DNA of 64,000 bases from a virus. Taxonomy: Duplodnaviria > Heunggongvirae > Uroviricota > Caudoviricetes. The position numbers and the translations under genes are program-made. The notes beneath the pieces are model-generated. The model did not search any database, was not told the origin of the DNA, and saw only the letters and a program-made list of their open reading frames with translations. Each line of letters opens with the position of its first letter. Position 1 is the first letter of the stretch. The stretch lies in IMG/VR virus record IMGVR_UViG_3300037512_000782, positions 188,732 to 252,731 of that record, one strand, 5' to 3'. Below, piece after piece: positions 7,792 to 46,257 of this stretch.

Positions 7792-7793
7792 TT

Positions 7794-8913: not shown

Positions 8914-9157
8914 CGACTTGTGGGACAAGTATCGCGACGACGTCGCGTCAATCGCTGGAAATATTGGCATCGGAAGCGATACGCCTAACGACAAGCTTAC
9001 CATCTTGTTTATCGCATCGAAGTGCGGCATTATCGAGATCGACGGCGACGACGCCAAGTATGTCGATGACATGATGAAGAAGAACGCGACGACTGGCCAC
9101 ATCGAGGGCAGCGTGAAGTCCGTATTTGATGACCCCGATTTTAAGGCACTATTCTAA
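8897..9157 (+). CDS. hypothetical protein
   Basis: 86-aa acidic ORF. Confidence 0.45.
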   Translation: MFGLIDDLWDKYRDDVASIAGNIGIGSDTPNDKLTILFIASKCGIIEIDGDDAKYVDDMMKKNATTGHIEGSVKSVFDDPDFKALF

Positions 9158-9441: not shown

Positions 9442-9465
9442 CAACAATCCCAGGACACCACACAC

Positions 9466-10206: not shown

Positions 10207-10691
10207 GAAACGACGACGAACTTCTGCAGTTGATCCGAGCCGACAAGCGCAAGAAAGTGGATCCGGTTCATATTGAGCTGAATATCTTTCCAGACAACAT
10301 GGGTGCCGACCATGAGGTATTCGCTGAAGAGCGAGTCGATCTCGATGTCGTTCGGTTCACGATGGATCAAGAGTCCATTGTCGCCCAGATCAAGATCGCT
10401 GCCAAGCTGGACGACTTTATCAGAAATCTGGAAAAGCTGCGCAGCAACTACGTCAAGCAGCTTGCGGTCGCCTATGGGCCGCTTATGAAGGAATTCTATA
10501 CCCAGTATAGCGCCGCATACCTCAAGAAGACTCCGGATCTGTTCGGAATGCGCCAAGTAATGGCGCATATCAGGACGTTTGCGAAGGAACTGGCCTTGCG
10601 TGAAGACAAAGATGAATCTATATTTGACGCTAGGCGTATTGAACGCGAACTTGCTAACTTGACGGAGGAACCCAATGGCAGTAATGATTAA
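10203..10691 (+). CDS. hypothetical protein
   Basis: 162 aa, ATGA overlap with the sigma gene stop. Confidence 0.5.
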   Translation: MRNDDELLQLIRADKRKKVDPVHIELNIFPDNMGADHEVFAEERVDLDVVRFTMDQESIVAQIKIAAKLDDFIRNLEKLRSNYVKQLAVAYGPLMKEFYTQYSAAYLKKTPDLFGMRQVMAHIRTFAKELALREDKDESIFDARRIERELANLTEEPNGSND

Positions 10692-18955: not shown

Positions 18956-19942
18956 TTATTGTTTTCGACATAATATACGCTTGATACGTTCGATGAATTT
19001 ATCGAACCATGTCAGATGGACTTGTTCCTCGGCTGGTTCGCTGGATTCGACTTCGGCGACGTAAGGGTCGCCGTTTTCGTTTTCCTTGACGACAAATTCA
19101 CGATGGACGACGTCGGTCTCCGGCTGTGGATCTTTCACGGCTGGCTCTGGGTCTTCTGCTGGCTTCTCTGGTTCTGGCTCCGCAGCGACTGTCTCGACTA
19201 CCTTGTTCATATCGTCGAGCGTATCCTTTATCTGCAGAGTGAATTCCGGCGGTATGTCGTACTTGTCCTTGCGGACATTCGAGTGACAGAAGATTCCCTT
19301 GTACGCAACCGCTTCATCTGCAGTATCGAATACGTCTCCGATCATTTCCTTGAAGGTCAGCGGAATGCCGTGCTTCTCGGACAGATACTTGAGCAAGTGC
19401 GCGACAGCCTTCTTCTGGATTTCCGTCATCTTCGCATAGTAGCAATAGCCACGGTACGAAATGAAGTCGACGTTGGCCGGATCCTTCGTGTAGAGGTTGC
19501 CGTATGCGTCGATGTAGTTGCCGTTCTGTTCCTTGTCCTTGAGTGGGCCGTAGTTAGAGATCTCTATGCCGATTGACTGCTTGGACATGACGGCATTTCC
19601 GCCGATCGCCGTAGAACCGAGGTGATACGACCAGAAGGCGTCATCGAACAGTCTGTAGATGTGTCCGCTGCGGTCTACGACGTAGGGCACGGACATGTGG
19701 TTGTTCTCCTTGGTAAGTGACGCGACGTCGCCAGTAATCACGCCTACGGTGAAATGTAGGCATATCTGCGTCTTTACCGTGCGTGTCTGGTAGAAGTAGG
19801 TCTTGAAACCGGGAGAAATGGGGATGATGCTGAAACCGTCGCCGATATCGATCGGGTTTCCAGCGGTGAACTTCTTGCCGGACGAATCCGTCAAGGTATT
19901 GGCAAACTTGGCCTCACGGCTAGCGATTGTTTCTGGAGTCAT
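18956..19942 (-). CDS. N-acetylmuramoyl-L-alanine amidase (Amidase_2/PGRP, T7-lysozyme-like) endolysin
   Basis: ICLHFTVG...VPYVVDRSGHIYRL matches the Amidase_2 zinc-binding core. The C-terminal half has a Pro/Glu linker (PEPEKPAEDPEPAVKDPQPE) followed by an extra domain. Confidence 0.75.
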   Translation of the reverse strand: MTPETIASREAKFANTLTDSSGKKFTAGNPIDIGDGFSIIPISPGFKTYFYQTRTVKTQICLHFTVGVITGDVASLTKENNHMSVPYVVDRSGHIYRLFDDAFWSYHLGSTAIGGNAVMSKQSIGIEISNYGPLKDKEQNGNYIDAYGNLYTKDPANVDFISYRGYCYYAKMTEIQKKAVAHLLKYLSEKHGIPLTFKEMIGDVFDTADEAVAYKGIFCHSNVRKDKYDIPPEFTLQIKDTLDDMNKVVETVAAEPEPEKPAEDPEPAVKDPQPETDVVHREFVVKENENGDPYVAEVESSEPAEEQVHLTWFDKFIERIKRILCRKQ

Positions 19943-23605: not shown

Positions 23606-24802
23606 TTAAAGAGTTTGACGGAGCTGGATCGCCTTGGCAATGAGCTCACGGTGATGGAAAGCGAGAGGAATTTCGTCGAGCTTGTCGATCGGATACCACA
23701 TGGCGTCCTTTGCGTCGTCTTGTGCTTCCGGATCGGCTGGCAAGATTCCTTCACGGTTGAAGTCGAACATCATGCCGATGTCGTAGCCCCAGTAGTCCTT
23801 GTGGACATCGCAGCGAGGATCCTTCGGCTTGAATACGCCGACTTGATGCACTTGCGACGTGCCGATGGTAAAGCCAGTTTCTTCCTTGACTTCACGGACA
23901 CCAGCTTCCTCGCAAGTTTCCTTCGGATTGGCGAAGCCTCCCGGCAAGCACCAGTAATCGTGGTACGGAGCCTTCAAGCGCTTCACCAAGAGGATACGGT
24001 CGTTGTGGAAGATGGCCGAAGTCACGGTGACGGAAGGACGAGGGAAGCGGAACGGATCGTAGTTGGCTACGAGTTCGTCCTCAACATCCTTGTATTCCTT
24101 CGGTTCGGACTGTCCGTACAACTTGTTGCGGCGGATATACGACATCACTACCGGAGACACTTGGTCACAGAAGCACAGCGGATCGAAATTCATCATAAGG
24201 CGAGCCTTGGTAGAACTCGTCTTCGGAATGATCCAGTCGACGTATTCCAAGCGTTCTTGGCTGCTGCGCATCTGCTTGTAAGTTTCATCCGAGATGGTGC
24301 CGAGTCCTTTGGCAGAGTCAAGTGTTTCGATGAAGGCGGTACGACGGACAATCAAGAAGTTGACGTTCTTGAGAATCCAGTCGCTGTTCACCCACTGCTT
24401 TGTAAGCAAAGAAATCCATTCGTCGGAACCGAGAACCAGCATGAAGGTCGCATCGGCCATGCTCGTCTCCTTGCGGAGATTCTGCAGAGCTTCAGCGGTG
24501 CGGCTGACTTCGTCGATGATCTTGACTCGGTGGAAGATTTCGGACGGTTCGCCTTGATTGTAGGCAGCCGGAGAATCCGAATTATCGGAGTACAGACTGT
24601 GAAGCGAATTGACCGTATGGACAATCATGGCCATGCGGTCTTCGCACTCAACCGAGTACTTCTTGGTATCGTTGTCGCTTACCAAGATGTACAAGAGGGC
24701 TTCTGGTTCCTTCTTGAGACGGTTGAGGAGTTCGGTAATAATGGCGGTGTGCGCAGTCGTTACCGGATCGAATGCGCCGCCGTAGATGTACACCTTCTTC
24801 AT
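23606..24802 (-). CDS. nadM: bifunctional nicotinamide/nicotinate mononucleotide adenylyltransferase + Nudix hydrolase (NadM-Nudix type)
   Basis: N-terminal GGAFDPVTTAH matches the (H/T)xGH nucleotidyltransferase motif; LVLGSDEW also present. C-terminal Nudix box GGFANPKETCEEAGVREVKEETG fits Gx5Ex7REUxEExGU. Confidence 0.85.
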   Translation of the reverse strand: MKKVYIYGGAFDPVTTAHTAIITELLNRLKKEPEALLYILVSDNDTKKYSVECEDRMAMIVHTVNSLHSLYSDNSDSPAAYNQGEPSEIFHRVKIIDEVSRTAEALQNLRKETSMADATFMLVLGSDEWISLLTKQWVNSDWILKNVNFLIVRRTAFIETLDSAKGLGTISDETYKQMRSSQERLEYVDWIIPKTSSTKARLMMNFDPLCFCDQVSPVVMSYIRRNKLYGQSEPKEYKDVEDELVANYDPFRFPRPSVTVTSAIFHNDRILLVKRLKAPYHDYWCLPGGFANPKETCEEAGVREVKEETGFTIGTSQVHQVGVFKPKDPRCDVHKDYWGYDIGMMFDFNREGILPADPEAQDDAKDAMWYPIDKLDEIPLAFHHRELIAKAIQLRQTL

Positions 24803-26151
24803 TAGTCGAGTGCGTCCTTGTTTTCTGGAATGGGTTCGTACTGGTACGCATCCTTCGCACGTTCGATCACCTTCGGATCGGGGCAGTTGACCTTGCCCGG
24901 AGAGTCGGAGAGCTTCACGGCGTACTTGCCGTTGGACATGACGAGCTTCATGATCATGCGAAGCGCGTCACGCTTGATGCCTCCCTTGAAGCGGAGCACC
25001 TTGCAAGCGAGGAAGCCGCCGATACCGAACGCAACATTGATACGAGTGTGGAAGCGTTCAGCGATATCGAGAGACTGGTCGCAGTTGAGGCTGTCAGACC
25101 AGCAGCCAACCTTGCTCTTGGAATTGATTGCGTTCTTGAGGTAGTGTGCGATAAGCATTTCGCCCCAGACATACGGGTCGCCGGAATCGTGGCGGCAGCC
25201 GTCGAACAGCTTTGCGTAATACTTGTCGAAGTCGCGCAAGAATGCGTTGAAGCCGAAGTTGTCGGAAAGCGCGATACCGAGGTCGCCACGGAATTCGTCA
25301 GACCAGTCTTCGAGAACGCGCTGCTGCACGAGTTCAAGCGGAATGTCCTTGATGCCCTGATACAAGGCATACATTTCGTGGGCGAAAGTACCGATGGCCT
25401 TGCAGCCGAGCTTGATTGCCAAGTATACGTTGGACGTGCCAACGAAGGCCGGGCAGAAGTCGAGCATGGTCTTGACCATGTATTCGTTCCATTCGTCAGA
25501 TACGGAACGACGGACGCCGAAGTCGGAAATGGTGAACTTGACACCACGGCGGAGTGCTGCGTTCCACTTGGCGATAGATTCGTTGAGGGCCTTCTTGGAT
25601 TCTTCCCAGTCGATTTCGAGGTCGTCGAAGAAGAGGTTCTGGATGATCTTCAAGACGTAGATTTCAAACCAAGTGACTTGGATGGCTGGGCCGTCAGCCC
25701 AGATGTGGAGACCGCCGTTGCGAGAAGGGTCGTAGTCGACGTGGATGTACTTGCGCTTGAGCTGGAAGTCGGCAAGCCATTCGATGAAGTCGTCTGACAG
25801 CCACGGCATGACACGGCGGATGCCTTCGAGTTCCCATTCAGTAAACTTGAGTGTGCAAAGGTGGTCGAGTTCGCGATTGATTTCGTCATAGAACGGAGTA
25901 AGGTCGACGCCTTCGGAACGGAGCTTGAATTCCCAGTAAGCTCGTTCGTTCGGATGCTTGTGGAACACGCACTGGCACATACCGAACTTGTACGTATCGG
26001 TCTGCGTTAGGTTGTTCACAAACCACTTGTCTTTGTTCTTGCGCTGATACTGCTTGTTTACAGTGACGCCGACTGCACGGCGCTTGCGAACAACGGTGCG
26101 ACAAGGCTGCTTCGCCCTCGCGATTGTTTTTTCTGTGACTTTAACTGCCAT
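24802..26151 (-). CDS. pncB: nicotinate phosphoribosyltransferase
   Basis: Collinear matches to PncB: TDTYKFGMCQCVFH, ISDFGVRRSVS, FVGTSNVYLAIKLGCKAIGTFAHE, RHDSGDPYVWGE, AFGIGGFLAC, KLSDSPGK. Has a basic ~45-aa N-terminal extension. 1-nt stop/start overlap with nadM. Confidence 0.9.
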   Translation of the reverse strand: MAVKVTEKTIARAKQPCRTVVRKRRAVGVTVNKQYQRKNKDKWFVNNLTQTDTYKFGMCQCVFHKHPNERAYWEFKLRSEGVDLTPFYDEINRELDHLCTLKFTEWELEGIRRVMPWLSDDFIEWLADFQLKRKYIHVDYDPSRNGGLHIWADGPAIQVTWFEIYVLKIIQNLFFDDLEIDWEESKKALNESIAKWNAALRRGVKFTISDFGVRRSVSDEWNEYMVKTMLDFCPAFVGTSNVYLAIKLGCKAIGTFAHEMYALYQGIKDIPLELVQQRVLEDWSDEFRGDLGIALSDNFGFNAFLRDFDKYYAKLFDGCRHDSGDPYVWGEMLIAHYLKNAINSKSKVGCWSDSLNCDQSLDIAERFHTRINVAFGIGGFLACKVLRFKGGIKRDALRMIMKLVMSNGKYAVKLSDSPGKVNCPDPKVIERAKDAYQYEPIPENKDALD

Positions 26152-27837: not shown

Positions 27838-27875
27838 CAAAACGAGCTGGCCGATCGGCCAGCTTTTTTATTTCC
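27838..27875 (+). terminator. intrinsic terminator
   Basis: AGCTGGCCGATCGGCCAGCT, a perfect 20-nt palindrome, followed by TTTTTTATTT. Confidence 0.75.
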
Positions 27876-28098
27876 TTCTACTTAAACTGTGTAGAATCCA
27901 TCTATGTATGGCTTCGAGGACGTTGCCCATCAGTGGAGTCATGCCATGCATCATCCTCGTCTTGACGGCGATCCATCGTTTCTTCATGAGGCTATAAAAA
28001 TGGTGGCATGCGCCTATGGCAAACGCTATGTATATGGCCATAAAAATTTTTTCACGCATATTTCACAAATTATATCAAAAACCTCTTGACGCTGATGA

Positions 28099-28117
28099 GT
28101 GTTATTACTATATTTCG
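28099..28117 (+). promoter_or_regulatory. host-like promoter box GTTATTACTATATTTCGTG upstream of cca
   Basis: TATATTTC ends ~5 nt before ATG 28122. Confidence 0.5.
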
Positions 28118-28121: not shown

Positions 28122-29378
28122 ATGAAGATTGATTTGAGCAAATACCACGAATTGGAGCTGAGTGACGGCCTCGCATTGGCGAAGGCGATCACCGAGCTCG
28201 GAGACGGCAAGGCGGAAGCTTATGTCGTCGGCGGATGCGTACGTGACCTTGTTCGTCATCAGCTAGGGCAGACTAGCACGGTAGATATCCATGATGTCGA
28301 TATCGCCACGTCGCTGTCTCTCGAAGAACTGAAGGCTAACTTCCAAACGGTCAGCAACAACGGCGAAAAACACGGAACGCTGCTGGTATTCTGGAACACA
28401 CAATACTTTGAAGTGACGCACTTCCGCGTCGACGGCGACTATAGCGACGGTCGTCATCCGGACGACGTATCCTTCACGAGTTCTTTCGAAGAAGATACGG
28501 CTCGCCGTGACTTTACTATCAACGCGCTCGGCATGAACTGGGACGGCGAAATCATCGACTTCCATGGCGGCGTTGAAGATATCAAGAAGAGAACCATCCG
28601 CGCTGTCGGTAATCCTGACGAGCGTTTCAAGGAAGATGCTCTCCGCATGATTCGTGCGGTGCGCTTCGCGGTAAACTTCGATTACATTATCGATAATAAC
28701 ACGTCTAGCGCAATCAGCAAGAACGCCGAGTTGGTTGAACATGTATCGAACGAACGTATTCGTTCCGAGTTCTTGAAGCTGTCCTCTTACGACAACATGC
28801 CCGATTTTATCGACCGTTTGATCTGGGTCGGCTTGATTAAGCATATCAGAGCGTTCGTCGGCATGGACTGGTACGAAGTCAAGTGCAACCTTATTGAGTG
28901 CGATGACTTGCTGACTGCAGACAACCTATTCCCCGCTATCTGCTACACGGCTAATGACGAAAGCAACTTGGAAGCATTCGTTCCTACTCGTGAGGAACGC
29001 AAGATGTGGAACTGGCTCCGTTCTTACAAGAATGTGTACGCATGGGATCCGGATTCCAAGCTGTATTGGACTTCGCTGGTGGATTTCGTGTCTGGTCAGT
29101 TCGAGCTGCTGCTTGCGCTCAATGCTGATCTGTATTGTGATCGTGCGTGGTTGCCCAAGCTTCCAGCAGCAAGCTATCTGTTGCAGAATCCGCCCGACAT
29201 GAAGGCGATTTCTAAGAGGGTCGCCGATATGGGCATTCCTCAAGGCAAGGCTTTTGGTGAAAAGGTGAAAGAACTCACTGAAGCCGAATACGCCAAGATG
29301 GCGGCTGTATTCCCAAACACAGTCTCGCTGACGATGGGCAACAGTACGCTTGTCTATAAAATTGAATCTGTCAAATAA
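28122..29378 (+). CDS. cca: tRNA nucleotidyltransferase (CCA-adding enzyme), class II
   Basis: AYVVGGCVRDLV (GGxVRD), DVDIATS (DxD catalytic motif) and RRDFTINAL (RRD motif). Track start 28086 is TTG. ATG 28122 sits 5 nt after a TATATTTC box. Confidence 0.85.
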   Translation: MKIDLSKYHELELSDGLALAKAITELGDGKAEAYVVGGCVRDLVRHQLGQTSTVDIHDVDIATSLSLEELKANFQTVSNNGEKHGTLLVFWNTQYFEVTHFRVDGDYSDGRHPDDVSFTSSFEEDTARRDFTINALGMNWDGEIIDFHGGVEDIKKRTIRAVGNPDERFKEDALRMIRAVRFAVNFDYIIDNNTSSAISKNAELVEHVSNERIRSEFLKLSSYDNMPDFIDRLIWVGLIKHIRAFVGMDWYEVKCNLIECDDLLTADNLFPAICYTANDESNLEAFVPTREERKMWNWLRSYKNVYAWDPDSKLYWTSLVDFVSGQFELLLALNADLYCDRAWLPKLPAASYLLQNPPDMKAISKRVADMGIPQGKAFGEKVKELTEAEYAKMAAVFPNTVSLTMGNSTLVYKIESVK

Positions 29379-29399: not shown

Positions 29400-29972
29400 A
29401 TGGGTAAAACAATCATTCTCGGCGCGGTCGGCTTTATCGTCGTCGCAATCCTCACAGTAATCGCATCCATCTTCATGGTTCAGAACTATCAGAACCGTGC
29501 AATCCAGATGGAACAGCTGGTGGAAAAGTCGCAGTCCAACCTCAACGCGGAATACAACCGCCGCGCTGGCCTTCTCGTCAACTTGGCGGAAGCCGTGATG
29601 AGCTATGACGAACACGAAGCCAAGGTTCTCGTGGAACTCTCGAAGGCTCGTACTCCAGACGGCGGCAAGGGAAACGTGAACGCTTCCGCTTACATCCAAG
29701 GTGTCGTGGAACGCTATCCGCAGCTCAGATCGATCGAGAATTACGATAGGTATATGACGGAACTTGCGATGACTGAAAATCGCATTGCGTCACATCGTAA
29801 TGATTACAATACCATGGTTGGGAACTATATCGCCTATGTGCGCGGATTCCCGGCTCGTTTCTTGCTCTCTATTCTCGGATATCAGCCGAAGAATTACGAA
29901 TACTTGCAGTTCGAAAAGGCTCCGGTAGACGCACCGACTGGCCTCTTGAAGAAGAAGGCTGATAAGGAATAG
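29400..29972 (+). CDS. LemA family membrane protein
   Basis: N-terminal TM helix, then QNYQNRAIQMEQ and EYNRRAGLLVNLAEAV, matching the LemA signature QxxRRADLIPNLV. Confidence 0.75.
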   Translation: MGKTIILGAVGFIVVAILTVIASIFMVQNYQNRAIQMEQLVEKSQSNLNAEYNRRAGLLVNLAEAVMSYDEHEAKVLVELSKARTPDGGKGNVNASAYIQGVVERYPQLRSIENYDRYMTELAMTENRIASHRNDYNTMVGNYIAYVRGFPARFLLSILGYQPKNYEYLQFEKAPVDAPTGLLKKKADKE

Positions 29973-29973
29973 C

Positions 29974-30765
29974 ATGAGCTCTCGCACACTGATCGACGGT
30001 GGCACGTGGGATCTCACTGTCCGTGAGCTGTTCTTGTCGATCGTTGGCTTACTGCTTGCCATAATCATTGGCTGCATTATCGCCAACAGCATCGCGCAAG
30101 CCGAAGACGAGTATAACGTGAAGTTCTATCACGCTATACAAGTGTCCGACTCCACCCAGTTCAATTATGCCTTCAAGACCAACGCTGGCCACATGCTGGC
30201 GTACGGCACTGTCAGCGCTGTTGGGTTCGTTACCGACAACGGTATCGGAAACTACATGTCGTTGACTAGGGACTTGGAGGAATACCGTAAGCACCATCGC
30301 ACAGTCTGTTCTGGCGAAGGGAAGCACCGTCATTGCCATACGGAAACCTACTGGACATGGGATGTCATCAAGACTGAACGGTTCCATGTCGATCAAGTGG
30401 ACTTCCTCGGCAAGCGGTTCTACTACTCTCAGTTTCCTCAGCTTCCGTCTGAACGCTATGTCGGCACAGTACCGATTCCGTCCGGCGGATTCATTGAAGG
30501 ATTGTTTAAGAACAGACAGCGGTATGTGTATCACGGCAGACGTTTAACGTACACTGGTACGATGTACACGAATGCGGTCAACCACACGATCAACGACTCC
30601 AAGTGGGCTGACGGCATTACGCTTGACAGAGCTATCGACTTCTACATCCATGAACATGGAGTATTGATTTTCTGGATTATCTTCGGTGTCATTATCGTCG
30701 TGGCCATCATCTTCTTTGTGGCGGCTCCGAACGAATGGCTTAACGGTTCAGTAAGGGACTGGTAA
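29974..30765 (+). CDS. two-pass membrane protein with ~180-aa extracytoplasmic domain
   Basis: TM helix at the N-terminus (LFLSIVGLLLAIIIGCIIA) and at the C-terminus (VLIFWIIFGVIIVVAIIFFV). 2-nt gap from the LemA gene. Confidence 0.6.
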   Translation: MSSRTLIDGGTWDLTVRELFLSIVGLLLAIIIGCIIANSIAQAEDEYNVKFYHAIQVSDSTQFNYAFKTNAGHMLAYGTVSAVGFVTDNGIGNYMSLTRDLEEYRKHHRTVCSGEGKHRHCHTETYWTWDVIKTERFHVDQVDFLGKRFYYSQFPQLPSERYVGTVPIPSGGFIEGLFKNRQRYVYHGRRLTYTGTMYTNAVNHTINDSKWADGITLDRAIDFYIHEHGVLIFWIIFGVIIVVAIIFFVAAPNEWLNGSVRDW

Positions 30766-30766
30766 T

Positions 30767-31177
30767 ATGAACGTAAAAATTGTAAATGGACTTGACGGAA
30801 ACGGATCCGTCACAATTACGGACAGCAATGGCGATGTCATGGTGTCCTTGAAGGACTGCCCGGAATTTCCGGTGTCTGGCGACATCACGATGGAATCCGA
30901 CAATGTTCTTATCGTCGGTGGCCGCCGCATCGAATGCGGTAAGCGTATCGCCGGGATCAACATCTGCGGTAACATTAAGTCCGTCCAAAATCTTCCAAAC
31001 ATTGTCGTGAACGGAAATGTCAGCAACGTCAGTACGACGTCTGGTGACGTGACTGTCCACGGCGACGTAAATGGCTCGGTGTCCGCCGTTTCTGGCGATG
31101 TCGAAGTCAGAGGTAGCGTCGCTGGCTCGGTCAGTACCGTGTCTGGCGATGTAGACGTCAGAAACAATCAACAATAA
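30767..31177 (+). CDS. beta-helical repeat protein (bactofilin/polymer-forming-like)
   Basis: Repeated (V/I)xGDVxVxGxV units: VSGDITM, VHGDVNGSVSAVSGDVEVRGSVAGSVSTVSGDVDV. Confidence 0.55.
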   Translation: MNVKIVNGLDGNGSVTITDSNGDVMVSLKDCPEFPVSGDITMESDNVLIVGGRRIECGKRIAGINICGNIKSVQNLPNIVVNGNVSNVSTTSGDVTVHGDVNGSVSAVSGDVEVRGSVAGSVSTVSGDVDVRNNQQ

Positions 31178-31189
31178 AGGAAAGTAAAC

Positions 31190-32827
31190 ATGGATATGTC
31201 CAATGTTCTTCTTTACGGCGGAATAGCAGTCGTCGTGCTGTTCCTCCTCGTACTCTTCTGTGTGTCCTACATCAAGGCCGCACCCGACGAAATCATCATC
31301 ATTTCTGGCTTCCGCAAGCGCCGTACCATCATTGGCCATGCCGGATTCAAGATTCCGTTCTTGGAACGAGCCGACAAGCTCAGCTTGAAGCTCTTCTCCA
31401 TCGACGTGAAGACCAAGGACATTCCGACCAGCGACTACATCAATGTGGGTGTGGATGCCGTCGTGAGTGTGAAGGTGTCTGATGAACCGACCCGCATCGA
31501 ATCTGCTGCACAGAACTTCTTGAACAAGAAACCTGAAGACATCGCCGAAATGATCACGGATATCCTCGAAGGTAATATGAGGGAGATCGTGGGCCAGATG
31601 GAACTCGTGAAGTTGGTCAACGACCGCAAGGGTGTGTCCGAACTTGTCCAGAAGAACGCTGACCCAGACCTCCAGCGCCTCGGCTTGGAAATCCAGACGT
31701 TCAACATCCAGAACTTCAGTGACGATAAGGGCGTAATCGACAACCTCGGCGTGGATAAGACCTCCGCTATCCGCAAGGCTGCAGCAATCTCCAAGGCCAA
31801 TGCAGAACGCGACATCAGCGTTGCTGAATCTCAGGCCAAGAAGGAAGCCAACGACGCCGCCGTGGCTGCAAACCTCGAAATCGCCCAGAAGCAGAACGAA
31901 CTCGAAGTGAAGAAAGCTGACCTCAAACGCATCGCCGACACGAAGAAGGCTGAAGCTGACGCTGCTTACGAAATCCAGAAGCAAGAACAGCAGAAGGTCA
32001 TCAACATCAAGGCCGCTGACGCCGAATGTGCTCGCCAAGAAAAGGAAGCAGAAATCCGCGAACGCATGGTCAACGTGAAGAAGAAAGAACTCGAAGCCGA
32101 ACTCGAAAAGACTGCAGAAGCAAAGCGCAACGCTCAGATCCAGAACTCCGAAGCTGACCTCTACCGTCAGAACAAGGACGCAGAAGCAAAGCTCTTTGCA
32201 AAGACTCAAGAAGCAGAAGCCATCAAGCAGATCGCTGAAGCTGAAAAGGCTCGCGCCTTCAACGAAGCTGAAGCCATCCGCGCAAGAGGTCAGGCAGAAG
32301 CTGACGCCATCAAGGCAAAGGGTCTTGCAGAAGCCGCTGCCCTCGATCAGAAGGCAGAAGCCATGCAGAAGTATGGTGAAGCCGCTCGTCAGGAAATGCA
32401 GTTGAAGGCCCTTGAAAAGTACTTCGACCAGTTGCCGAGTGTCGCAGCCGCCATCGCAAAGCCGATGGAAAGAATCGGCGGCATCACCATGTACGGCAAC
32501 GGCAACACCGCTGCTCTCACTGGCGACATCATCAAGACTTTGACCCAAGTATCCAATGGTCTCACCGAATCGCTCGGTATCAGCCTCCCCAATGTGCTTA
32601 GCTCCATGTTCGGCGCAAAGCTTGCTGGCGTAGGCAACAACAAGGCCGAAAAGGTTCCTTGCGACGTCGTGAACGAAGCACCGAAGGTTGATACAGAAAC
32701 TCCGAAGGCCGCCCCGGCTCCGAAGGCTGAAGCTCCCAAGATGACCGCTGAACAGGTCTCCAAGATCGCAGCGACCGTCAAGAAGACTCAGCAGAAGCCG
32801 TCCGAACGCAAGCTTCCGTGGGAATAA
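31190..32827 (+). CDS. flotillin-like SPFH/band-7 protein with long EA-rich coiled coil
   Basis: N-terminal TM helix, then an SPFH core (IIIISGFRKRRTIIGHAGFKIPFLERADKLSLKLFSIDV...). Followed by ~250 aa of AEAxxKAxAEA flotillin-type coiled coil. Terminator 32853-32884. Confidence 0.85.
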   Translation: MDMSNVLLYGGIAVVVLFLLVLFCVSYIKAAPDEIIIISGFRKRRTIIGHAGFKIPFLERADKLSLKLFSIDVKTKDIPTSDYINVGVDAVVSVKVSDEPTRIESAAQNFLNKKPEDIAEMITDILEGNMREIVGQMELVKLVNDRKGVSELVQKNADPDLQRLGLEIQTFNIQNFSDDKGVIDNLGVDKTSAIRKAAAISKANAERDISVAESQAKKEANDAAVAANLEIAQKQNELEVKKADLKRIADTKKAEADAAYEIQKQEQQKVINIKAADAECARQEKEAEIRERMVNVKKKELEAELEKTAEAKRNAQIQNSEADLYRQNKDAEAKLFAKTQEAEAIKQIAEAEKARAFNEAEAIRARGQAEADAIKAKGLAEAAALDQKAEAMQKYGEAARQEMQLKALEKYFDQLPSVAAAIAKPMERIGGITMYGNGNTAALTGDIIKTLTQVSNGLTESLGISLPNVLSSMFGAKLAGVGNNKAEKVPCDVVNEAPKVDTETPKAAPAPKAEAPKMTAEQVSKIAATVKKTQQKPSERKLPWE

Positions 32828-32852
32828 TATTGCTCAATTACCTCTGTTGTTC

Positions 32853-32884
32853 CAAGGCCAGCCGAAAGGCTGGCCTTTCTGTTG
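32853..32884 (+). terminator. intrinsic terminator after flotillin operon
   Basis: AGGCCAGCC-gaaa-GGCTGGCCT followed by TTCTGTTG. Confidence 0.65.
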
Positions 32885-32917
32885 ACAGCAGTGAGTGTAT
32901 TTACTATATTTTGGCCG

Positions 32918-33796
32918 ATGACTTACCCTTTACACAACGAAACCCCTATCATCAATACGGCACCGAGAAAGCTCAAGAAGGAAGCCGATATTGAGATCTA
33001 TGTCGATATCGAAGGAACCCTTATCGACAACTTATTCGATGCGAATTTTCTGAACCACAACTGCGACAATATCCGTGACTACATCCGCAAGCATGATGGC
33101 CATCACTACAAGGTTCATATCTTTACGTGGGGATGGGTTCACCGTTCCGAGATCGAGCTTGGCCTTGTCGATAACTTGTACAAGCGTCTGGAAGTCGCCA
33201 AGGAACACCGTGGCTCAATCTATGTCAAGGAAGACGCAGTCAACGCTTTGATCGACTTTTGCCCAGACATGCCGTTCGACCGCAATACCCTCATGAACCC
33301 AGGCGGATTCGGTCACTACGGTTTCTCGAAGCCTTCTATATGGAGCTTGATGATTACGTCCGAAAACAAGTTCAATGTGTTGATCGATGACACGGTGGAC
33401 TGCGAAATCGATAGTGAAAAGATAAAGTACATCAATCCGGCAAGAATGAAGGTCGTCATCCGCAACTACCTTGACAAGCCAGCATTGCTGTACAATCCAG
33501 ACGGCTGCATTGTCGGCGAAATCAAGAACGACACCGCATTCGAGGATGTGCGCAGCCAGATCGGTCTGCAGAGGCTATCCGGATATTACTTCATGTTCGA
33601 AGGACAGCGCATCAATATTGACCGTTATGGTGGTGTTGAAGACTATCCAAAAGGATTCTTTGATACTGTTATTTCAGCAGCTGGTGACTTGTTGTCGAAT
33701 GACCAAGAAGCACAAACAATTTTCAATGAAAAACTCGCCGGAATTTATCCGCAACCAATCAATCCAGAGGTGACTGATGACGAAGACGACGCATGA
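32918..33796 (+). CDS. hypothetical protein; C-terminal domain paralogous to 34289-35362
   Basis: Track start 32882 is TTG; the ATG is 32918, 5 nt after a TATATTTT box. C-terminal GxIKN...I...GYYxxxxGxRINxDxxGxxxxYPxGFxD is shared with the 34289 gene. Confidence 0.55.
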   Translation: MTYPLHNETPIINTAPRKLKKEADIEIYVDIEGTLIDNLFDANFLNHNCDNIRDYIRKHDGHHYKVHIFTWGWVHRSEIELGLVDNLYKRLEVAKEHRGSIYVKEDAVNALIDFCPDMPFDRNTLMNPGGFGHYGFSKPSIWSLMITSENKFNVLIDDTVDCEIDSEKIKYINPARMKVVIRNYLDKPALLYNPDGCIVGEIKNDTAFEDVRSQIGLQRLSGYYFMFEGQRINIDRYGGVEDYPKGFFDTVISAAGDLLSNDQEAQTIFNEKLAGIYPQPINPEVTDDEDDA

Positions 33797-34292
33797 AGAA
33801 GACGTGAACCGTCTCAAGGAAATCGAGACGACAATCGACAAGTTGTACGACGAGCAGAATCAAATCCGTGACCGCTTGTTGCTGGACGATATCAACGGAA
33901 AGCTTGGTCGTATCATGGACAAGTGGGTCGTGATTCCTGGTTGGGATCCGTGCGACGAAGCCGACGGAGATAACTATTTCCGTCTCGGAAAAGTCGTCGG
34001 TTTCAAGAAATGGGACGGCAACGACAGATACTTTCTGCAGTTCTCTAGGCTGGTCTATATGGGTCATGCAAAGAAAAATGACCAGTATGACAAGAACGCC
34101 CAGACGATCAGGTTCACAAGCAAGAAGGACATGGATAATCATTGCGTGGGCGACATCAAACGCGCCAAGGTGATTACCGCAAGGAAGGCGAGCAAGATGA
34201 TTGACGACGCTCTGGCTTCTATCACTCGCCGTCTGAAGAATGTCCAGAACGAAGCCCTCAAGGACTACGCCGACAAGGAAATGACAAAATGA
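33777..34292 (+). CDS. hypothetical protein
   Basis: 171-aa ORF overlapping its neighbours by 20 and 4 nt. Confidence 0.5.
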   Translation: MTKTTHEEDVNRLKEIETTIDKLYDEQNQIRDRLLLDDINGKLGRIMDKWVVIPGWDPCDEADGDNYFRLGKVVGFKKWDGNDRYFLQFSRLVYMGHAKKNDQYDKNAQTIRFTSKKDMDNHCVGDIKRAKVITARKASKMIDDALASITRRLKNVQNEALKDYADKEMTK

Positions 34293-35362
34293 ACACGACC
34301 GTAGCTCACTTGTTCCGTCAGTTGCGCCAGATCGCCGCAGAGCGACCGGATTGCATCAATGCGGAACTCATCGACGAAGCAGAAAAGAAAGCATTGGAGA
34401 AGTCCGTAGGCGCTCGCATCGAGGGCCCGGCACTCATGGAAGTGTGGAAGCTCGTGAAGCTCCGCATCAAGCCGCCGAAGAAGCTCATGCCGAGGATAAT
34501 GGCCGAACTGAAACATTGGAAGTGCAAGGATATCAAGGTCACGGTATCCAACCACTACTCGACCGATTACGCCGCCAAGGAAACCGACGACTATCCTCCG
34601 TACTGCTTTGCGTACAACATCGAATGCACTCGCCATGTGGGCGGAAAGTGCTTCTTCCGCGTAATGGTCATCGGCGTGTTCTCCGATATCTTGGAAGTTC
34701 TGAACAACGACCGTTACGACGTAGTCGACTACCGTCTTATCTATGGCAAAATGGAAGTGAACGGAACCGACGTTCCGGAAAACCAGTACAACTGCTATAT
34801 CAGCGACCAGTCTCGTGTCCGCGACGATATCTGTGACGCTCTGTGGAAATATCACGAAGGCATCTTGTGCTGCGCCAACGCAAACGATGAACACGCGATC
34901 ATCCGCGACTTTATTCGTAGCGAGTATAGCCACAAGACGATCGAAGAATTGAACGAGTACGATATCGTCGTACAAGTTCAAGAATATGTCAAGTCACACA
35001 CGCTGCTCGACGGATATAAGCCTACGCCAGCCGCGATCTTCAAGGTAGTCTATGACATGCGTCGCAGCAAGACCGAAAAGTCCGTGAAGAAATGGCAATT
35101 GCTTGAACAGCCATCGGTCATCATACACAACGACCTCGATCCGGAAGTACAGGCGTTCGACCCTAAAGGAAACTTCGTCGGAGTCATCAAGAACATTGCC
35201 GCCTTGTATGATTTCAAGCTGCAGATCAAGACGCTGGGTGTCCGTGGATACTACATGTACTACGGAGACAAACGAATCAACGTAGACCAGAATGGCGAAT
35301 TCGACGAATATCCACCGGGATTTTACGACTTGTTTGCCGACTGCGCCGCAAGAATTATCTAG
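34289..35362 (+). CDS. hypothetical protein; C-terminal domain paralogous to 32918-33796
   Basis: 357-aa ORF. Its C-terminal ~70 aa align with the C-terminus of the 32918 gene. Confidence 0.6.
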   Translation: MNTTVAHLFRQLRQIAAERPDCINAELIDEAEKKALEKSVGARIEGPALMEVWKLVKLRIKPPKKLMPRIMAELKHWKCKDIKVTVSNHYSTDYAAKETDDYPPYCFAYNIECTRHVGGKCFFRVMVIGVFSDILEVLNNDRYDVVDYRLIYGKMEVNGTDVPENQYNCYISDQSRVRDDICDALWKYHEGILCCANANDEHAIIRDFIRSEYSHKTIEELNEYDIVVQVQEYVKSHTLLDGYKPTPAAIFKVVYDMRRSKTEKSVKKWQLLEQPSVIIHNDLDPEVQAFDPKGNFVGVIKNIAALYDFKLQIKTLGVRGYYMYYGDKRINVDQNGEFDEYPPGFYDLFADCAARII

Positions 35363-38900: not shown

Positions 38901-39361
38901 TTGATCGTCCTCGGCAATCTCATGAATATCTTCTCTATGCGGTCGACCTCGGCTATCACGTCCTTCGGTATGTCCGACTCGTCGTGGTGTAGGAAAAGGT
39001 GTACGGTGTTGATGTTCACCAAGACGACCTCGTACGAAATTATCTTGTCGCGGTCTACGCGAGTCCGAAGGTGCATCTCGTTCGATACCAGCTGGATAAG
39101 GCTGCTGCCAGGCATGTCGCCCTTGTAGCGGAACTCGCGTACCCGGTGACGCGCTATCTGGGCGATGCTATGCACCATCATGTTGTTCCGCATGTGGCTG
39201 TATGTCACGGTGAACGCCAGCGCCGCCCTTACGGTGCTGTATCCGTTGCCGTACGACTCGATAAACCAGCGGAACAGCATGCGGTCGTGCGAGTCCTTGA
39301 GGAACCGTCGTAGCCCAGCCGCCAGAAACCCGATGTATATTGTCCACAGCGCTATTCTCAT
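38897..39361 (-). CDS. N-terminally membrane-anchored island paralog P2
   Basis: Start set to MRIALWTIYIGFLAAGLRRF by analogy with the 4-nt overlaps of the other paralogs. The track ORF extends to 39457. Confidence 0.5.
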   Translation of the reverse strand: MRIALWTIYIGFLAAGLRRFLKDSHDRMLFRWFIESYGNGYSTVRAALAFTVTYSHMRNNMMVHSIAQIARHRVREFRYKGDMPGSSLIQLVSNEMHLRTRVDRDKIISYEVVLVNINTVHLFLHHDESDIPKDVIAEVDRIEKIFMRLPRTIK

Positions 39362-39828
39362 AGGTTCCTCGGTATGTTCATGAAGGATTCGTATATGGGA
39401 TGGTACTGTTCCCATGTGACGTCGTCCATGAAAGACGTCTTGCCCGACAGCATGCACCGAGACGGTGTGTACTGATAGAGTTCATACGGTAGGTCGAATC
39501 TTGGGTAGTACTTGGCGAGGTACTTGTCCATCGCGCCTCGTATCCTTGGTATCGCTTCCAAATAGCCGTGCGCACCTCTGCAGCGGAAGGTCTTGACAAT
39601 ACACGTAGGTATGGACACCCTCAGTCTGACCGCTTCGCCGTCGACGGTCATCCCCAAGTCCTTGGTCTTCACGTACACCAGCACAACCCTGTAGGCGTCA
39701 AGGCCGAACATCTGCAATGCCAGCGTCTGCTGGACACGGAAGCTGCGATAGCTCTTGAGCGTCTCCCATGCGTTCCTTGCAGCGCCGACGGCAAAGAAAC
39801 CGTATATTGTCCACAATACCTTGTTCAT
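39358..39828 (-). CDS. N-terminally membrane-anchored island paralog P3
   Basis: MNKVLWTIYGFFAVGAARNAWETLK anchor. C-terminus ends ...FMNIPRNL, homologous to P4. Confidence 0.55.
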   Translation of the reverse strand: MNKVLWTIYGFFAVGAARNAWETLKSYRSFRVQQTLALQMFGLDAYRVVLVYVKTKDLGMTVDGEAVRLRVSIPTCIVKTFRCRGAHGYLEAIPRIRGAMDKYLAKYYPRFDLPYELYQYTPSRCMLSGKTSFMDDVTWEQYHPIYESFMNIPRNL

Positions 39829-40283
39829 AGTTCCCTCGGCATGGCCTCGAACGCCTTGTTGATGCAGCGTACGTCGTAGCTGTCAAGGTGCTGTATGAGC
39901 TTCCACTCCCAGCCTTCCGTGTCCGGGCTGGACGTGTAGTCGCTCTCCAAGGTGAATTCGAGGTCGAGGCTGCCGTAGTGCCGACTGATGTACCTCTTCA
40001 TCCGTGCCTTCAGTATGATCGTCACGTCGAAGAACCCTTCGGCCCTCTTGCAGACGAACGTCCTCGTGATTCCGCTGGCGACCGAGACGTACATCGGCTG
40101 CTTGCCGCCGTCCGGAATGTCGATCCACAGAACCTTCCTGTACGATAGCGAGACATCGTACTTCCCCGGCGGAAGGTACGTGTCCCTCAGCCGCATGCCT
40201 ACGCCCATCTTCACCAGCTTCGAGAACCGCCGTGCGGCTCCGACGAGGAATCCTAGATACACAATGTAAAGAAACTTTTTCAT
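39825..40283 (-). CDS. N-terminally membrane-anchored island paralog P4
   Basis: MKKFLYIVYLGFLVGAARRF anchor. TFVCKRAEGFF...FEAMPREL is homologous to P3. Confidence 0.55.
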   Translation of the reverse strand: MKKFLYIVYLGFLVGAARRFSKLVKMGVGMRLRDTYLPPGKYDVSLSYRKVLWIDIPDGGKQPMYVSVASGITRTFVCKRAEGFFDVTIILKARMKRYISRHYGSLDLEFTLESDYTSSPDTEGWEWKLIQHLDSYDVRCINKAFEAMPREL

Positions 40284-40786
40284 AATAGCTCGTCCTCACG
40301 CATCTCCCCGCAGTTGACCAGCCGACGGTAGAACTCCCTTCGGTACTCGTTCATCACCCAGAGAAGCCTAGACATCCTGACGCCGTGCTTCTTGCAGAAC
40401 GTGTCGAACTGGTACTCCTCCTTCACCATGCGGTATCCGTCGTCGCTTGGGCAGTCCTCGGTACACCTGTAGGGGACGTAGTCGTCGATCGTGATGAAGA
40501 ATCCGTCGAGGTCGCCACGGTACTTCTCGCCGAGACGGCACCTCACGTCGTCGAACACCGAGTCGCGAACCTTGAACGGTATGTACATCGACGAGTACGT
40601 GAAGTACATCTCGCCCAGCTTCCTTATCACGAAGTAGCAGACGTACACGTCGCTTCCCCTGAACTTCTTCGGGTTCAGCCAGCCCTTGTATCGGTAGTTC
40701 TGCACGAAACGCGCCTTCCGCAACACCGACTTCCAGATGCCGACCACGGCAAGCAGTATGCCTATCCACGGAACCATCTTCCTCAT
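40280..40786 (-). CDS. N-terminally membrane-anchored island paralog P5
   Basis: MRKMVPWIGILLAVVGIWKSV anchor. C-terminal EEYQFDTFCKKHGVRMSRLLWVMNEYRREFYRRLV is shared with P6 and P7. Confidence 0.55.
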   Translation of the reverse strand: MRKMVPWIGILLAVVGIWKSVLRKARFVQNYRYKGWLNPKKFRGSDVYVCYFVIRKLGEMYFTYSSMYIPFKVRDSVFDDVRCRLGEKYRGDLDGFFITIDDYVPYRCTEDCPSDDGYRMVKEEYQFDTFCKKHGVRMSRLLWVMNEYRREFYRRLVNCGEMREDELL

Positions 40787-41334
40787 AGCAGCATGTCCTC
40801 GCTCATCTTTCCGTCGAGAACCAGCCGTCTGTACAGCTCCCTACGGTAGTCCACCATCGCCATCTCCACTCTCCTCATCGGTACTCCGTGCCTACTGCAG
40901 AACGTAGAGAAGCGGTACTCCTCCTTGATAGTCCCCGTGCCGTTTCCGTTGTCGTCCATGTACTGCGGCGGAACGTTGGGCTCTATCGTCATGAGGAACC
41001 CGTCCATACGACCGAACGAACCGCCTCCGCCAACGTCGTAGAGGCCGAGTGTAAGGTCGAACTGGTATCGGTAGTCGTCCACTACGTCCTTCGGCAAGTA
41101 GATCGGAGAACAGTTGTAGTAGAACTCGGACACCAGCTTCCGCTTGCCGTGGACGCTCTTCAGCTTCACGTCGTACAGACAGAAGCACATCTGCCTCCAC
41201 GACCAAGGACGGAACTTCCTACCGTCCAGAAGACCCAAGTGACGCCTCTCAAGGAACGCCACGCGACGCCGCATCGACTTCCATACGCCGATCCCCAGTA
41301 TGCCGAACGCTATCATGGGCATGCCGATCCTCAC
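40783..41334 (-). CDS. N-terminally membrane-anchored island paralog P6
   Basis: MRIGMPMIAFGILGIGVWKSM anchor. EEYRFSTFCSRHGVPMRRVEMAMVDYRRELYRRLV is homologous to P5. Confidence 0.55.
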   Translation of the reverse strand: MRIGMPMIAFGILGIGVWKSMRRRVAFLERRHLGLLDGRKFRPWSWRQMCFCLYDVKLKSVHGKRKLVSEFYYNCSPIYLPKDVVDDYRYQFDLTLGLYDVGGGGSFGRMDGFLMTIEPNVPPQYMDDNGNGTGTIKEEYRFSTFCSRHGVPMRRVEMAMVDYRRELYRRLVLDGKMSEDMLL

Positions 41335-41870
41335 CGTACGTCCTCCTCCTTGATGTACCCGTCCTCGATCAGCTTCACGTACAGCTGGCCACGCAAGTCG
41401 TCCATCGCTCCCTTCAGCTTGCTGTAAGGAACCCTATACACCTCGCAGTACGCCTTGAACGTGTACTCCGGCTTCACTTTCCATACGGCGTCGCCCTTGA
41501 ACGTCCTTCCAGACAGATACCGTGCAAACCCAGGGATGTTCACGCACAGAAGCAGCTCCCAGCCGCCAAGCATCTCCTTGTACGGAGCAGTTATCTCCAC
41601 GGCGAGACTCGCCGCGTATACCGTAGGGACGGCAGTAGGCAACAGCACCTCGCACATGTCGTAGTACCGCAGCACCGAGCCGTCCTTCACCCGGCACAGC
41701 ATGTAGTGGTAGCTTCGGCATGGGTAGTTGAACAGCATGTGGCTGTACGACGTCCTAGCACGGCCTCCCAGTCTCCTAACGAACTTGAAACGGCCTACCA
41801 GCGCACGGTATCCGCCGTACGCTGCAAGACATACCGCAAGAAGCGGATATATGACCGTGCCTATCCTCAT
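41331..41870 (-). CDS. N-terminally membrane-anchored island paralog P7 (first gene of island operon)
   Basis: MRIGTVIYPLLAVCLAAYGGYRAL anchor. KPEYTFKAYCEVYRVPYSKLKGAMDDLRGQLY relates it to P5 and P6. On the minus strand, a TTTGCTATATTTCGG box ends ~8 nt upstream of the ATG. Confidence 0.55.
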   Translation of the reverse strand: MRIGTVIYPLLAVCLAAYGGYRALVGRFKFVRRLGGRARTSYSHMLFNYPCRSYHYMLCRVKDGSVLRYYDMCEVLLPTAVPTVYAASLAVEITAPYKEMLGGWELLLCVNIPGFARYLSGRTFKGDAVWKVKPEYTFKAYCEVYRVPYSKLKGAMDDLRGQLYVKLIEDGYIKEEDVR

Positions 41871-45150: not shown

Positions 45151-45267
45151 GGTCGCTATACGGTGTCAGACTGGCACGGCGATGGCGGGACTGCTACGCA
45201 GTCCTATTTTTATTTTGTAAGCCGATGGGGCTTACGAAAACGCCATTCTCAAAAGGAGATACGAATT

Positions 45268-46257
45268 ATGGCTTACAAAAAGACCGGAAAAACGGCTTCC
45301 CAAGTTGGGGAAGAAATCAAGTCCACCATTACATCCAAGTTCCTTGAATGCCTCGACAAGGGCTGTATCCCTTGGAGAGAACAGTGGAACCGCAGCGAAA
45401 GCGGCTTTCTGAAGAGTGACGGCAAGTCCTACTCGTTCTTGAACACTCTGTTGCTCGTCATTGACGGCTGCACGGAAGGCGAGTTCGTGACCTTGAACGG
45501 TATCGCTGAACGCTTGGGCATTGAACCCAAGGAAGCTTGGAACCACATCAAAAAGGGCGACAACGGCAAGGCTGTCCATGGTCACCATGTCTACTTCTAC
45601 ACCATGGTTCCTATCTACCTCAAGGAAGACGGCAAGGTAGTATACGAAAGGGACGCTCGTGGTCAGTTTGTCTTGGACTCCAAGGGCAAGAAGATACCGA
45701 AGATTAGCGGTCATTATCCTATGCTCAAGAGTTCGGTTGTTTGGCAAGTCGGCACTGAAGCTTTTTGTCCGACGAAGTTCGAGAAAAAGAAAAAAGTAGT
45801 CCACAACAATCCGATTGCGGTCGCTGAACAAATTATTGTTGACTATCAAGCTCGCGAGGGTGTCAAGATTGAATTCCGCAACGCCACGCCAGGATATTCG
45901 GATAAGCTTGACAAAATCTATATTCCGTCCATCAATGACTATCCGAACGCAAATATTTATTATTCGGATTTGTTCCATGAAATTGCTCACTCTAGCGGTC
46001 ATCCGAAAAGATTAAATCGTGACCTCGACAACCGCATGAAACGTGGTTCTTACTCTTTTGAAGAGTTGGTCGCTGAAATCTGTTCGTGTGCGATAATGCA
46101 CGACAACGGATTTGACACTCCGCAGTGCGACGAATTAAGTCAATCCTATGTAAAGGATTGGGCGAAAACTCTCAGAAGTGACCCCACAATGATTGAAAAA
46201 GCTTGTCGCGTGGCGGTCAAGGCTGCAAACTTTATCTACAACGGAGAAAAGAAGTAA
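45268..46257 (+). CDS. ArdC-like antirestriction protein (DUF1738 ssDNA-binding N-domain + zincin HExxH metallopeptidase domain)
   Basis: N-terminal ITSKFLECLDKGCIPWREQWN matches the DUF1738 core IxxxIxxLEKGxxPWxxPW. C-terminal FHEIAHSSGH has HExxH. ATG 45268 follows AAAAGGAGA; the track ORF starts at 45163. Confidence 0.7.
   Translation: MAYKKTGKTASQVGEEIKSTITSKFLECLDKGCIPWREQWNRSESGFLKSDGKSYSFLNTLLLVIDGCTEGEFVTLNGIAERLGIEPKEAWNHIKKGDNGKAVHGHHVYFYTMVPIYLKEDGKVVYERDARGQFVLDSKGKKIPKISGHYPMLKSSVVWQVGTEAFCPTKFEKKKKVVHNNPIAVAEQIIVDYQAREGVKIEFRNATPGYSDKLDKIYIPSINDYPNANIYYSDLFHEIAHSSGHPKRLNRDLDNRMKRGSYSFEELVAEICSCAIMHDNGFDTPQCDELSQSYVKDWAKTLRSDPTMIEKACRVAVKAANFIYNGEKK

Follow-up and report, generated by a model that had tools for sequence, protein, structure and literature searches.

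The 64,000-nucleotide stretch analyzed here (the window; positions 188,732 to 252,731 of the IMG/VR virus record IMGVR_UViG_3300037512_000782, Caudoviricetes) carries a compact operon of four genes that encode a LemA-family protein, a two-pass membrane protein referred to here as TM2, a small beta-solenoid protein, and a flotillin. The element belongs to the accessory genes of a very large phage of the rumen (roughly 470 kb) and is a composite of three separable pieces: a LemA-TM2 pair, the beta-solenoid, and a host-like flotillin. The LemA-TM2 pair is the conserved core of the operon, an obligate pair that is common in phages and prophages and not an accessory to flotillin, and this pair, rather than a membrane microdomain module, is the more general lead. 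Our tentative reading of its function, to which we give somewhat less than an even chance, is that the module would serve in envelope maintenance or counter-defense, keeping the host membrane intact, organized, and energized during infection.

In a scan of 185,579 species genomes, TM2 relatives were found at 49 loci, and in all 47 of those that keep upstream sequence, TM2 is immediately preceded by LemA. The same arrangement, with members of phrog_1383 and phrog_3886 adjacent on one strand and LemA first, is shared by the window, these 47 loci, and further phage records. The scan loci belong mostly to Lachnospiraceae and other Clostridia, and in the three that were checked with PHROGs (L045, L036, and L058), the neighbors are phage replication genes (helicases, primase, exonuclease, and Sak4-like). 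The pair is also present as ORF23/ORF24 in the Lactococcus garvieae prophage PLg-TB25 (PMC5431838). It occurs as well in Lysinibacillus phage LC76P1 and in the strictly lytic Enterococcus Schiekvirus EfV12-phi1 (Herelleviridae). In the latter (MH880817.1), the “hypothetical protein” after LemA at 4049-4783 is the TM2 homolog, and its annotated start seems too short, cutting off the N-terminal transmembrane helix. Most of the pairs at the genome-scan loci are without flotillin, whereas LemA-TM2 is joined directly to flotillin in two megaphage clades and lies within 2.5 kb of one in a third, Firmicutes-type lineage.

The composition of related loci reveals how the operon is put together. The order TM2, beta-solenoid, flotillin, with LemA upstream where the contig allows, is found in the window and in L026, L027, L028, L029, and L087. 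An otherwise syntenic sibling phage (L025) has LemA, TM2, and the beta-solenoid without flotillin, and L024 has LemA-TM2 only. In L003, L004, and L007-L010, the beta-solenoid is missing, and the order is a one-pass protein (seen in L008), LemA, TM2, and flotillin; L005, L006, and L011 contain only the one-pass protein and flotillin, and the more distant phage flotillins (L012-L023 and L077-L079) are found alone. An initial annotation of the window had described a complete flotillin scaffold module, a description that we abandon because LemA-TM2, the beta-solenoid, and flotillin each occur apart. The one-pass membrane protein (163-170 residues, no Pfam match) is conserved in a related megaphage clade, where it precedes LemA or flotillin on the IMG/VR contigs L005, L008, and L011. 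Its gene overlaps the start of flotillin in the first and last of these, and the protein may represent an additional partner of flotillin.

This separability raises the alternative that there is no joint function at all and that four independent accessory genes have come to lie in a hypervariable region, the flotillin having been captured alone from the host. Each component does occur without the others, with flotillin alone of the four in 15 of the 21 viral loci that carry one (L005, L006, and L011-L023), and the neighborhood of the related Fibrobacter flotillin, described below, has none of these partners. However, such independence sits poorly with the stop-to-start gaps of 1 nucleotide (LemA/TM2), 1 nucleotide (TM2/beta-solenoid), and 12 nucleotides (beta-solenoid/flotillin), which are the 2- and 13-nucleotide junctions of the initial annotation in another counting convention. 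It also has to account for the order TM2, beta-solenoid, flotillin, which is not a matter of chance because relatives retain it at identities as low as 59% (TM2), 48% (beta-solenoid), and 47% (flotillin), and for the association of LemA-TM2 with flotillin in the second megaphage clade and in the Firmicutes-type phage. We therefore regard the absence of any joint function as unlikely.

The phage-borne status of the operon, as originally proposed, is borne out by flanking genes that match PHROG families, by IMG/VR relatives, and by phage-like contigs of 410-470 kb, which together rule out a bacterial origin of the window. Contigs of 254 kb and 69 kb carry syntenic relatives. Relatives of the flotillin occur both on viral contigs of IMG/VR (411-415 kb) and on contigs without classification (460-470 kb), and the close relatives come from samples of gut and rumen. 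When the module was compared with GenBank phages by megablast, no match was obtained. In agreement with the initial annotation, no description of the four-gene combination was found in the searchable literature; the arrangement appears mildly novel as a combination, whereas phage SPFH genes and the annotation of phage flotillins were already known.

The first protein of the operon was correctly recognized as LemA. It scores 80 bits against PF04011 (gathering cut-off 26.2; E = 2e-22), matches phrog_1383 (E = 7e-30) and the solved helical bundle of T. maritima LemA (PDB: 2ETD; E = 5.5e-19), and contains the peptide EYNRRAGLLVNL picked out at the outset. Both phrog_1383 and several Enterococcus phage records bear the label “virion structural protein,” which could place LemA in the phage particle. 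This label is an unverified annotation, however, and LemA of EfV12-phi1 lies among metabolic genes rather than in the structural module; a signal-anchored protein with an obligate two-pass partner is also unlikely to be found in a tailed-phage particle, and we consider a virion role extremely improbable. A LemA-YgcG-DUF477 operon is present in a 240 kb record named “Acinetobacter phage MD-2021a” (L090; CAKLQH020000003.1) together with gltB, gltD, a pilin gene, and an O-antigen ligase, and this stretch looks like a bacterial chromosome mislabeled as phage. In addition, one paper fails to keep this LemA family apart from the Pseudomonas kinase LemA/GacS.

TM2 matches phrog_3886 (E = 5e-44), and its hydrophobic segments at residues 12-44 and 223-258 agree with the initial description of a membrane protein with transmembrane helices at both ends. 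No Pfam family was matched by TM2, and none was matched consistently by the 36 members tested. The idea of a two-pass protein of the GIDE/MUL1 kind was dropped, GIDE being among the families without a consistent match. The structural model (predicted local distance difference test score, pLDDT, 79.5) comprises a helix at residues 16-52, a beta-rich domain at approximately 55-213, and a second helix at 229-250. The beta-rich ectodomain of ~170-190 residues carries an invariant T-x-x-Y-W-x-W-D motif (T123, Y126, W127, W129, and D130). An exhaustive profile search places at least 764 clusters at 50% identity in the TM2 family, spread over prophages, lytic Herelleviridae, and megaphages. Among the best 150 clusters, nearly all proteins are 226-294 residues long, barring a few truncated entries and one of 387 residues; the only long TM2 homolog, P0310, has no LemA domain, and a LemA-TM2 fusion was rejected on this basis.

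Both members of the pair are predicted to expose their large domains outside the cytoplasm because of a charge bias seen in positive-inside counts over their homologs. LemA has a single N-terminal hydrophobic segment, within residues 1-31, and its homologs average 3.4 lysine and arginine residues before the helix and 1.1 after it, with the N side higher in 50 of 52. The protein is probably oriented N-in/C-out, with the bundle facing the periplasm. For TM2, the homologs show an N-in bias in 36 cases versus 3, and the protein probably has both termini inside and its ectodomain facing the periplasm.

An outward-facing pair could also act in superinfection exclusion, which is the main rival to a role in envelope maintenance or counter-defense. 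T4 Imm and Sp and the lactococcal Sie and Ltp proteins are exclusion proteins that block DNA entry by other phages; LemA-TM2, placed at the outer face of the cytoplasmic membrane, would similarly block the DNA of competing phages, and flotillin and the beta-solenoid would merely localize the pair. The predicted extracytoplasmic placement of both large domains would suit such a role, as would the location of the pair outside virion and lysis modules and its patchy occurrence, common in temperate prophages, which resembles that of exclusion genes. However, the prophage pair is situated among the lytic replication genes, shares their strand, and is not adjacent to repressor or integrase, and a “moron” test in two prophages found no autonomous promoter or terminator signal around it above shuffled background. 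Strictly lytic Herelleviridae retain the pair as well, its sequences do not resemble those of known exclusion proteins, and the host-like flotillin would be left without an obvious role. Exclusion is, in our judgment, improbable.

The third gene encodes a protein without a hydrophobic segment that is modeled as an all-beta solenoid (pLDDT 80) built from SGDV repeats of ~17 residues and that matches phrog_3163. The initial label “bactofilin-like” can refer at most to the beta-helical fold; PF04519 is not reached (13.4 bits against a gathering cut-off of 27.9; E = 0.093). Among the relatives, Bactofilin is matched by 8 of 37 (best E = 8e-4) and DUF4097/Toastrack by 9 of 37 (best E = 3e-20), and several bear the Joint Genome Institute (JGI) name “YvlB”; the window protein itself gives no match to PF13349 (DUF4097, Toastrack) at E values up to 10. 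Because of the sub-threshold PF04519 score and the split among relatives, “bactofilin-like” is a statement on fold only: the protein is probably Toastrack/bactofilin-like in fold and is limited to one clade. As it has no hydrophobic segment, the beta-solenoid is probably cytoplasmic, and the bulk of the flotillin, for which the charge counts over homologs are weakly C-in, is weakly predicted to lie on the same side.

The flotillin has the full architecture of its family, consisting of an N-terminal membrane anchor (hydrophobic segment within residues 1-38), an SPFH domain, a coiled coil rich in alanine, glutamate, and lysine, a Flot domain, and a C-terminal tail. Its initial identification as a flotillin of 545 residues is supported by gathering scores above cut-off for both Band_7 (PF01145; 85.3 bits versus 23.6) and Flot (PF15975; 33.6 bits versus 27). 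It matches human flotillin-1 (E about 1e-49 to 7e-50) and flotillin-2 (E = 3e-49) as present in two complexes of solved structure (9BQ2 and 9L3G), and one flotillin-2 chain aligns to residues 47-467. The FloT equivalog NF058507 of NCBIfam is not reached (240 bits versus a cut-off of 700), so that by profile score the phage protein is a member of the flotillin family and not a FloT ortholog. As first observed, there is no NfeD partner: scanning with Pfam detected no protein of the NfeD, YuaF, or YqiJ type among the module genes or the tested neighbors of related loci. Such a partner defines the usual flotillin operon and not the flotillin protein family.

Similarity to a cellular flotillin points to a probable host. 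Over 473 residues, the flotillin is 72% identical to the chromosomal Fibrobacter flotillin WP_088629361, with ~60 C-terminal residues left unaligned. The gene for the latter is surrounded by housekeeping genes (panD ... rsfS, argS), and neither LemA nor TM2 is found close to it. A neighbor-joining tree groups the flotillins of Fibrobacter and those of the megaphages as sisters. Given this identity, the chromosomal setting, and the sister grouping, we take the similarity as a sign of a recent flotillin exchange between phage and host, which could have run in either direction, and consider Fibrobacter the probable host. Bins of metagenome-assembled genomes (MAGs) are an unreliable guide in this matter, since contigs 97% identical to the window were binned as both Prevotella and Fibrobacter: L028 and L029 contain the whole module at 96-99% protein identity to the window in rumen MAGs labeled Prevotella sp. 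and Fibrobacter sp., and at least one of them is phage sequence in the wrong bin. The two labels are to be read either as artifacts of binning or as hints at the host.

All four open reading frames (ORFs) were recovered where the initial annotation had placed them, on the plus strand (Table 1), and their tight packing and co-transcribed appearance hold up. A promoter-like motif, TTGAC-N18-TATATT, occurs in five exact plus-strand copies in the window, against 0.01 expected by chance, at positions 28086, 32882, 36468, 55719, and 59218, and probably defines a class of phage promoters used by a polymerase of the sigma-70 type. The copies at 28086, 32882, and 36468 overlap or follow a terminator-like hairpin, and those at 28086 and 32882 have GTGAGTGT...TTACTATATT in common. 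The strong hairpin noted initially after flotillin is present as well: the region 32840-32895 that contains it folds at -29.1 kcal/mol (z = -4.68; 0 of 200 shuffles equally stable), although its U-tract is weak, which is why a consensus terminator scan missed it. A signal scan found no strong promoter or terminator signals inside the unit. With two promoter copies bracketing the operon, the hairpin at its end, and no strong internal signals, the unit most likely runs from the promoter through a CCA-adding enzyme, LemA, TM2, the beta-solenoid, and flotillin to the terminator, and we infer that the module genes are co-transcribed. The CCA-adding enzyme (PolyA_pol, 110.7 bits, and PolyA_pol_RNAbd in Pfam; phrog_2244, tRNA nucleotidyltransferase, E = 4e-52) ends 21 nucleotides before LemA; its ORF as listed opens at TTG 28086, and the likelier start is ATG 28122, past the promoter.

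Table 1. Features of the putative transcription unit and its borders in the window.
Feature	Coordinates	Strand	Length	Character	Matches
Terminator-like hairpin	27844-27865			Upstream of the promoter copy at 28086
Promoter-like site TTGACG-N17-TATATT	28086-28114	+		One of five motif copies
tRNA nucleotidyltransferase (CCA-adding enzyme)	28122-29378	+		Probably first gene of the unit
LemA-family protein	29400-29972	+	190 aa	N-terminal signal-anchor helix, then helical bundle, probably extracytoplasmic	PF04011, phrog_1383, PDB 2ETD
Two-pass membrane protein TM2	29974-30765	+	263 aa	Predicted N-in, ectodomain, C-in	phrog_3886
Beta-solenoid	30767-31177	+	136 aa	Small, soluble	All-beta model, phrog_3163
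Flotillin	31190-32827	+	545 aa		Band_7 and Flot above cut-offs
Terminator-like hairpin	32854-32877	+		10-bp GC-rich stem, GAAA loop, then UUUCUGUU
Promoter-like site TTGACA-N17-TATATT	32882-32910	+		Opens the unit downstream of the module, directly after the hairpin

Starting 3 kb upstream of the module, a gene of the NAPRTase/NAMPT family (24802-26151, minus strand) adjoins a gene with cytidylyltransferase and NUDIX domains (23606-24802, minus strand), and this pair is separated from LemA by an HD-domain gene and the gene of the CCA-adding enzyme. Judged by its domains, the pair has the composition of NARP2, which is reported to be a counter-defense reconstituting nicotinamide adenine dinucleotide (NAD+) from nicotinamide via nicotinamide mononucleotide (NMN) (PMC13464706). 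This pathway was first described in a preprint (bioRxiv 10.1101/2024.02.11.579819). LemA-TM2, flotillin, and genes for rebuilding NAD cluster a second time, independently, in L041, a MAG contig labeled Congzhengia sp. that derives from a Firmicutes-type large phage unrelated to the window. Here, LemA-TM2 is placed between NAMPT and an RNA-repair-type phosphatase of the HAD_SAK_2 family. NadE, a flotillin (47% identity), and a PRPS-like gene are all no more than 5 kb from the pair, and the whole cluster is contained in 9 kb (1300-10537). LemA-TM2 of EfV12-phi1 is located between PnuC and NadR, and a pig-gut phage flotillin lies 3 kb from NAMPT. This recurrent setting among NAD and tRNA genes suggests a host-maintenance or repair neighborhood. 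Of the roles that the initial annotation had offered for a phage-built or hijacked microdomain (assembly, lysis timing, or disruption of membrane-associated defense), the last would be the best fit to these surroundings.

Lysis timing has less to recommend it. The proteins are membrane-embedded and could act as holin or antiholin regulators or as stabilizers of the membrane until lysis, and flotillin could delay membrane collapse. However, the sole lysis-type gene found in the window, an amidase/endolysin-like gene on the minus strand (18956-19942; phrog_1794, phrog_1493), is 10 kb from the module in another unit, and the prophage pair is positioned upstream of packaging genes rather than in the lysis cassette. 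The large ectodomain of TM2 is, to our knowledge, unlike that of known holins. We consider a part in lysis timing very unlikely.

Other features of the window lie outside the proposed unit. Downstream of the module, the plus-strand genes at 32882-33796 and 34289-35362 have a common C-terminal domain of ~80 residues (37% identity, E = 1e-13); the first gives a weak DUF3696 match, and the duplication recurs in related loci. The downstream 304-residue protein was considered as a HAD_SAK_2 phosphatase and rejected for want of any similarity. Five minus-strand genes of 150-185 residues at 39358-41870 are mutually paralogous at 24-36% identity, in the stretch with the highest G+C content of the window (0.56). 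A plus-strand gene at 45163-46257 combines an ArdC N-terminal domain with a zincin-like metallopeptidase (MPTase-PolyVal), an anti-restriction-type architecture.

The proposed role in envelope maintenance or counter-defense can be pictured as follows. A LemA-TM2 complex with its large domains in the periplasm would form the outer part of a membrane-spanning assembly, the two cytoplasmic ends of TM2 would couple to the beta-solenoid as a sub-membrane adaptor, and flotillin would provide a scaffold of SPFH domains and coiled coils beneath the membrane. Such an assembly, for which we infer physical association of the four proteins, could buffer membrane damage caused by the phage itself or by membrane-attacking abortive-infection effectors. 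In this picture, the operon would belong to a block of genes that “keep the host alive” and would act there on the membrane, next to arms for NAD+ rebuilding and tRNA 3'-end repair. The literature lends some support through MamQ, which ties the LemA family to membrane remodeling (PMC4902198), and through the Toastrack and Band-7 partners of envelope-stress systems (PMC11237479). A more specific version, which we think distinctly unlikely in full, is a three-part damage-repair counter-defense island in which the NARP2-like enzymes would rebuild NAD+ after the attack of NADase effectors, the CCA-adding enzyme would restore tRNA 3' ends after that of tRNA-targeting effectors, and the module would seal or stabilize the membrane against pore-forming or depolarizing abortive-infection effectors. 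Under this version, LemA-TM2 would represent a widespread, unrecognized class of phage anti-defense or membrane-protection genes. We know of no membrane-repair counter-defense described so far.

Several observations weigh against a role in envelope maintenance or counter-defense. The clustering with NAD-salvage genes could simply mirror a general accessory-gene region, and the parts, each occurring independently, may not act together. The TM2 ectodomain has no recognizable fold relative among solved structures. Pfam detected neither a PspA-like nor another known membrane-repair effector among the module genes; PspA/IM30, PspC, and LiaF gave no match in the five genes of the unit, with the rest of the window scanned less than exhaustively. 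PADLOC returned a match at chance level (E = 0.009), in which no single stretch passed by itself. Lastly, the assignment of a host is based on flotillin similarity and one MAG bin, and another, nearly identical contig had been placed in a Prevotella bin.

Flotillins and other SPFH proteins organize membrane microdomains, and functional studies of those carried by phages, including the SPFH genes of T4-like and crAss-like phages, were not found in the searchable literature; the same holds for functional work on phage LemA or the LemA-TM2 pair. Very large gut and rumen phages repeatedly carry full-length flotillins, and that of the window is close to the presumed host's own. LemA-TM2, for its part, is a phage-specific membrane pair, which we read as ancient. 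Should the pair protect or remodel the membrane of the host, the known phage strategies of NAD+ rebuilding and tRNA repair would be joined by one that acts on the membrane. The LemA family would then have a functional context for only the second time, the first being that of MamQ, the sole member tied to a process, namely magnetosome membrane formation (PMC4902198). Enterococcus phages that carry the pair make its function directly testable.

The phage LemA has the same domain and N-terminal anchor as MamQ and the LemA proteins of cellular LemA-TPM operons, in which LemA likewise immediately precedes a membrane-anchored partner, as in the LemA-YgcG-DUF477 operon of L090. TPM-domain partners of cellular LemA face outward. 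The phage partner, however, is TM2, a separate family without a Pfam model (phrog_3886), and Pfam finds no TPM domain in this gene downstream of the phage LemA; magnetosome genes are absent from the phage module. The flotillin has the same full architecture as those of bacterial flotillin operons (FloT/YuaG-YuaF and FloA-NfeD) and of SPFH cages such as HflK/C and flotillin-1/2, but its gene stands beside LemA, TM2, and the beta-solenoid instead of a partner of the NfeD/YuaF type.

Phage-borne SPFH genes have been listed since 2006, as SPFH/Band-7 ORFs in the T4-like phages 44RR, Aeh1, and RB43 (PMC1524935), and the public record of the crAss-like phage csAssE-Sib already contains a “flotillin family protein”; unlike the flotillin described here, these are listed without LemA-TM2 or beta-solenoid partners. 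In a survey of phage shock protein (PSP) envelope-stress systems (Ravi et al. 2024, PMC11237479), Toastrack and Band-7 proteins turn up repeatedly as partners. The module echoes themes described there for sub-membrane stress complexes, in that it places a small beta-solenoid, probably like Toastrack or bactofilin in fold, beside membrane proteins and a flotillin of the Band-7 group. The module differs in being phage-encoded, in lacking PspA, PspC, and LiaF, and in a beta-solenoid with no DUF4097 score, and the PSP survey makes no mention of LemA. With regard to NARP1/NARP2 and phage tRNA repair, the module adjoins a NARP2-like pair and shares a unit with the CCA-adding enzyme, and NAD-salvage genes surround LemA-TM2 in two other phage lineages as well; the tie of the module to these systems, however, is one of neighborhood only.

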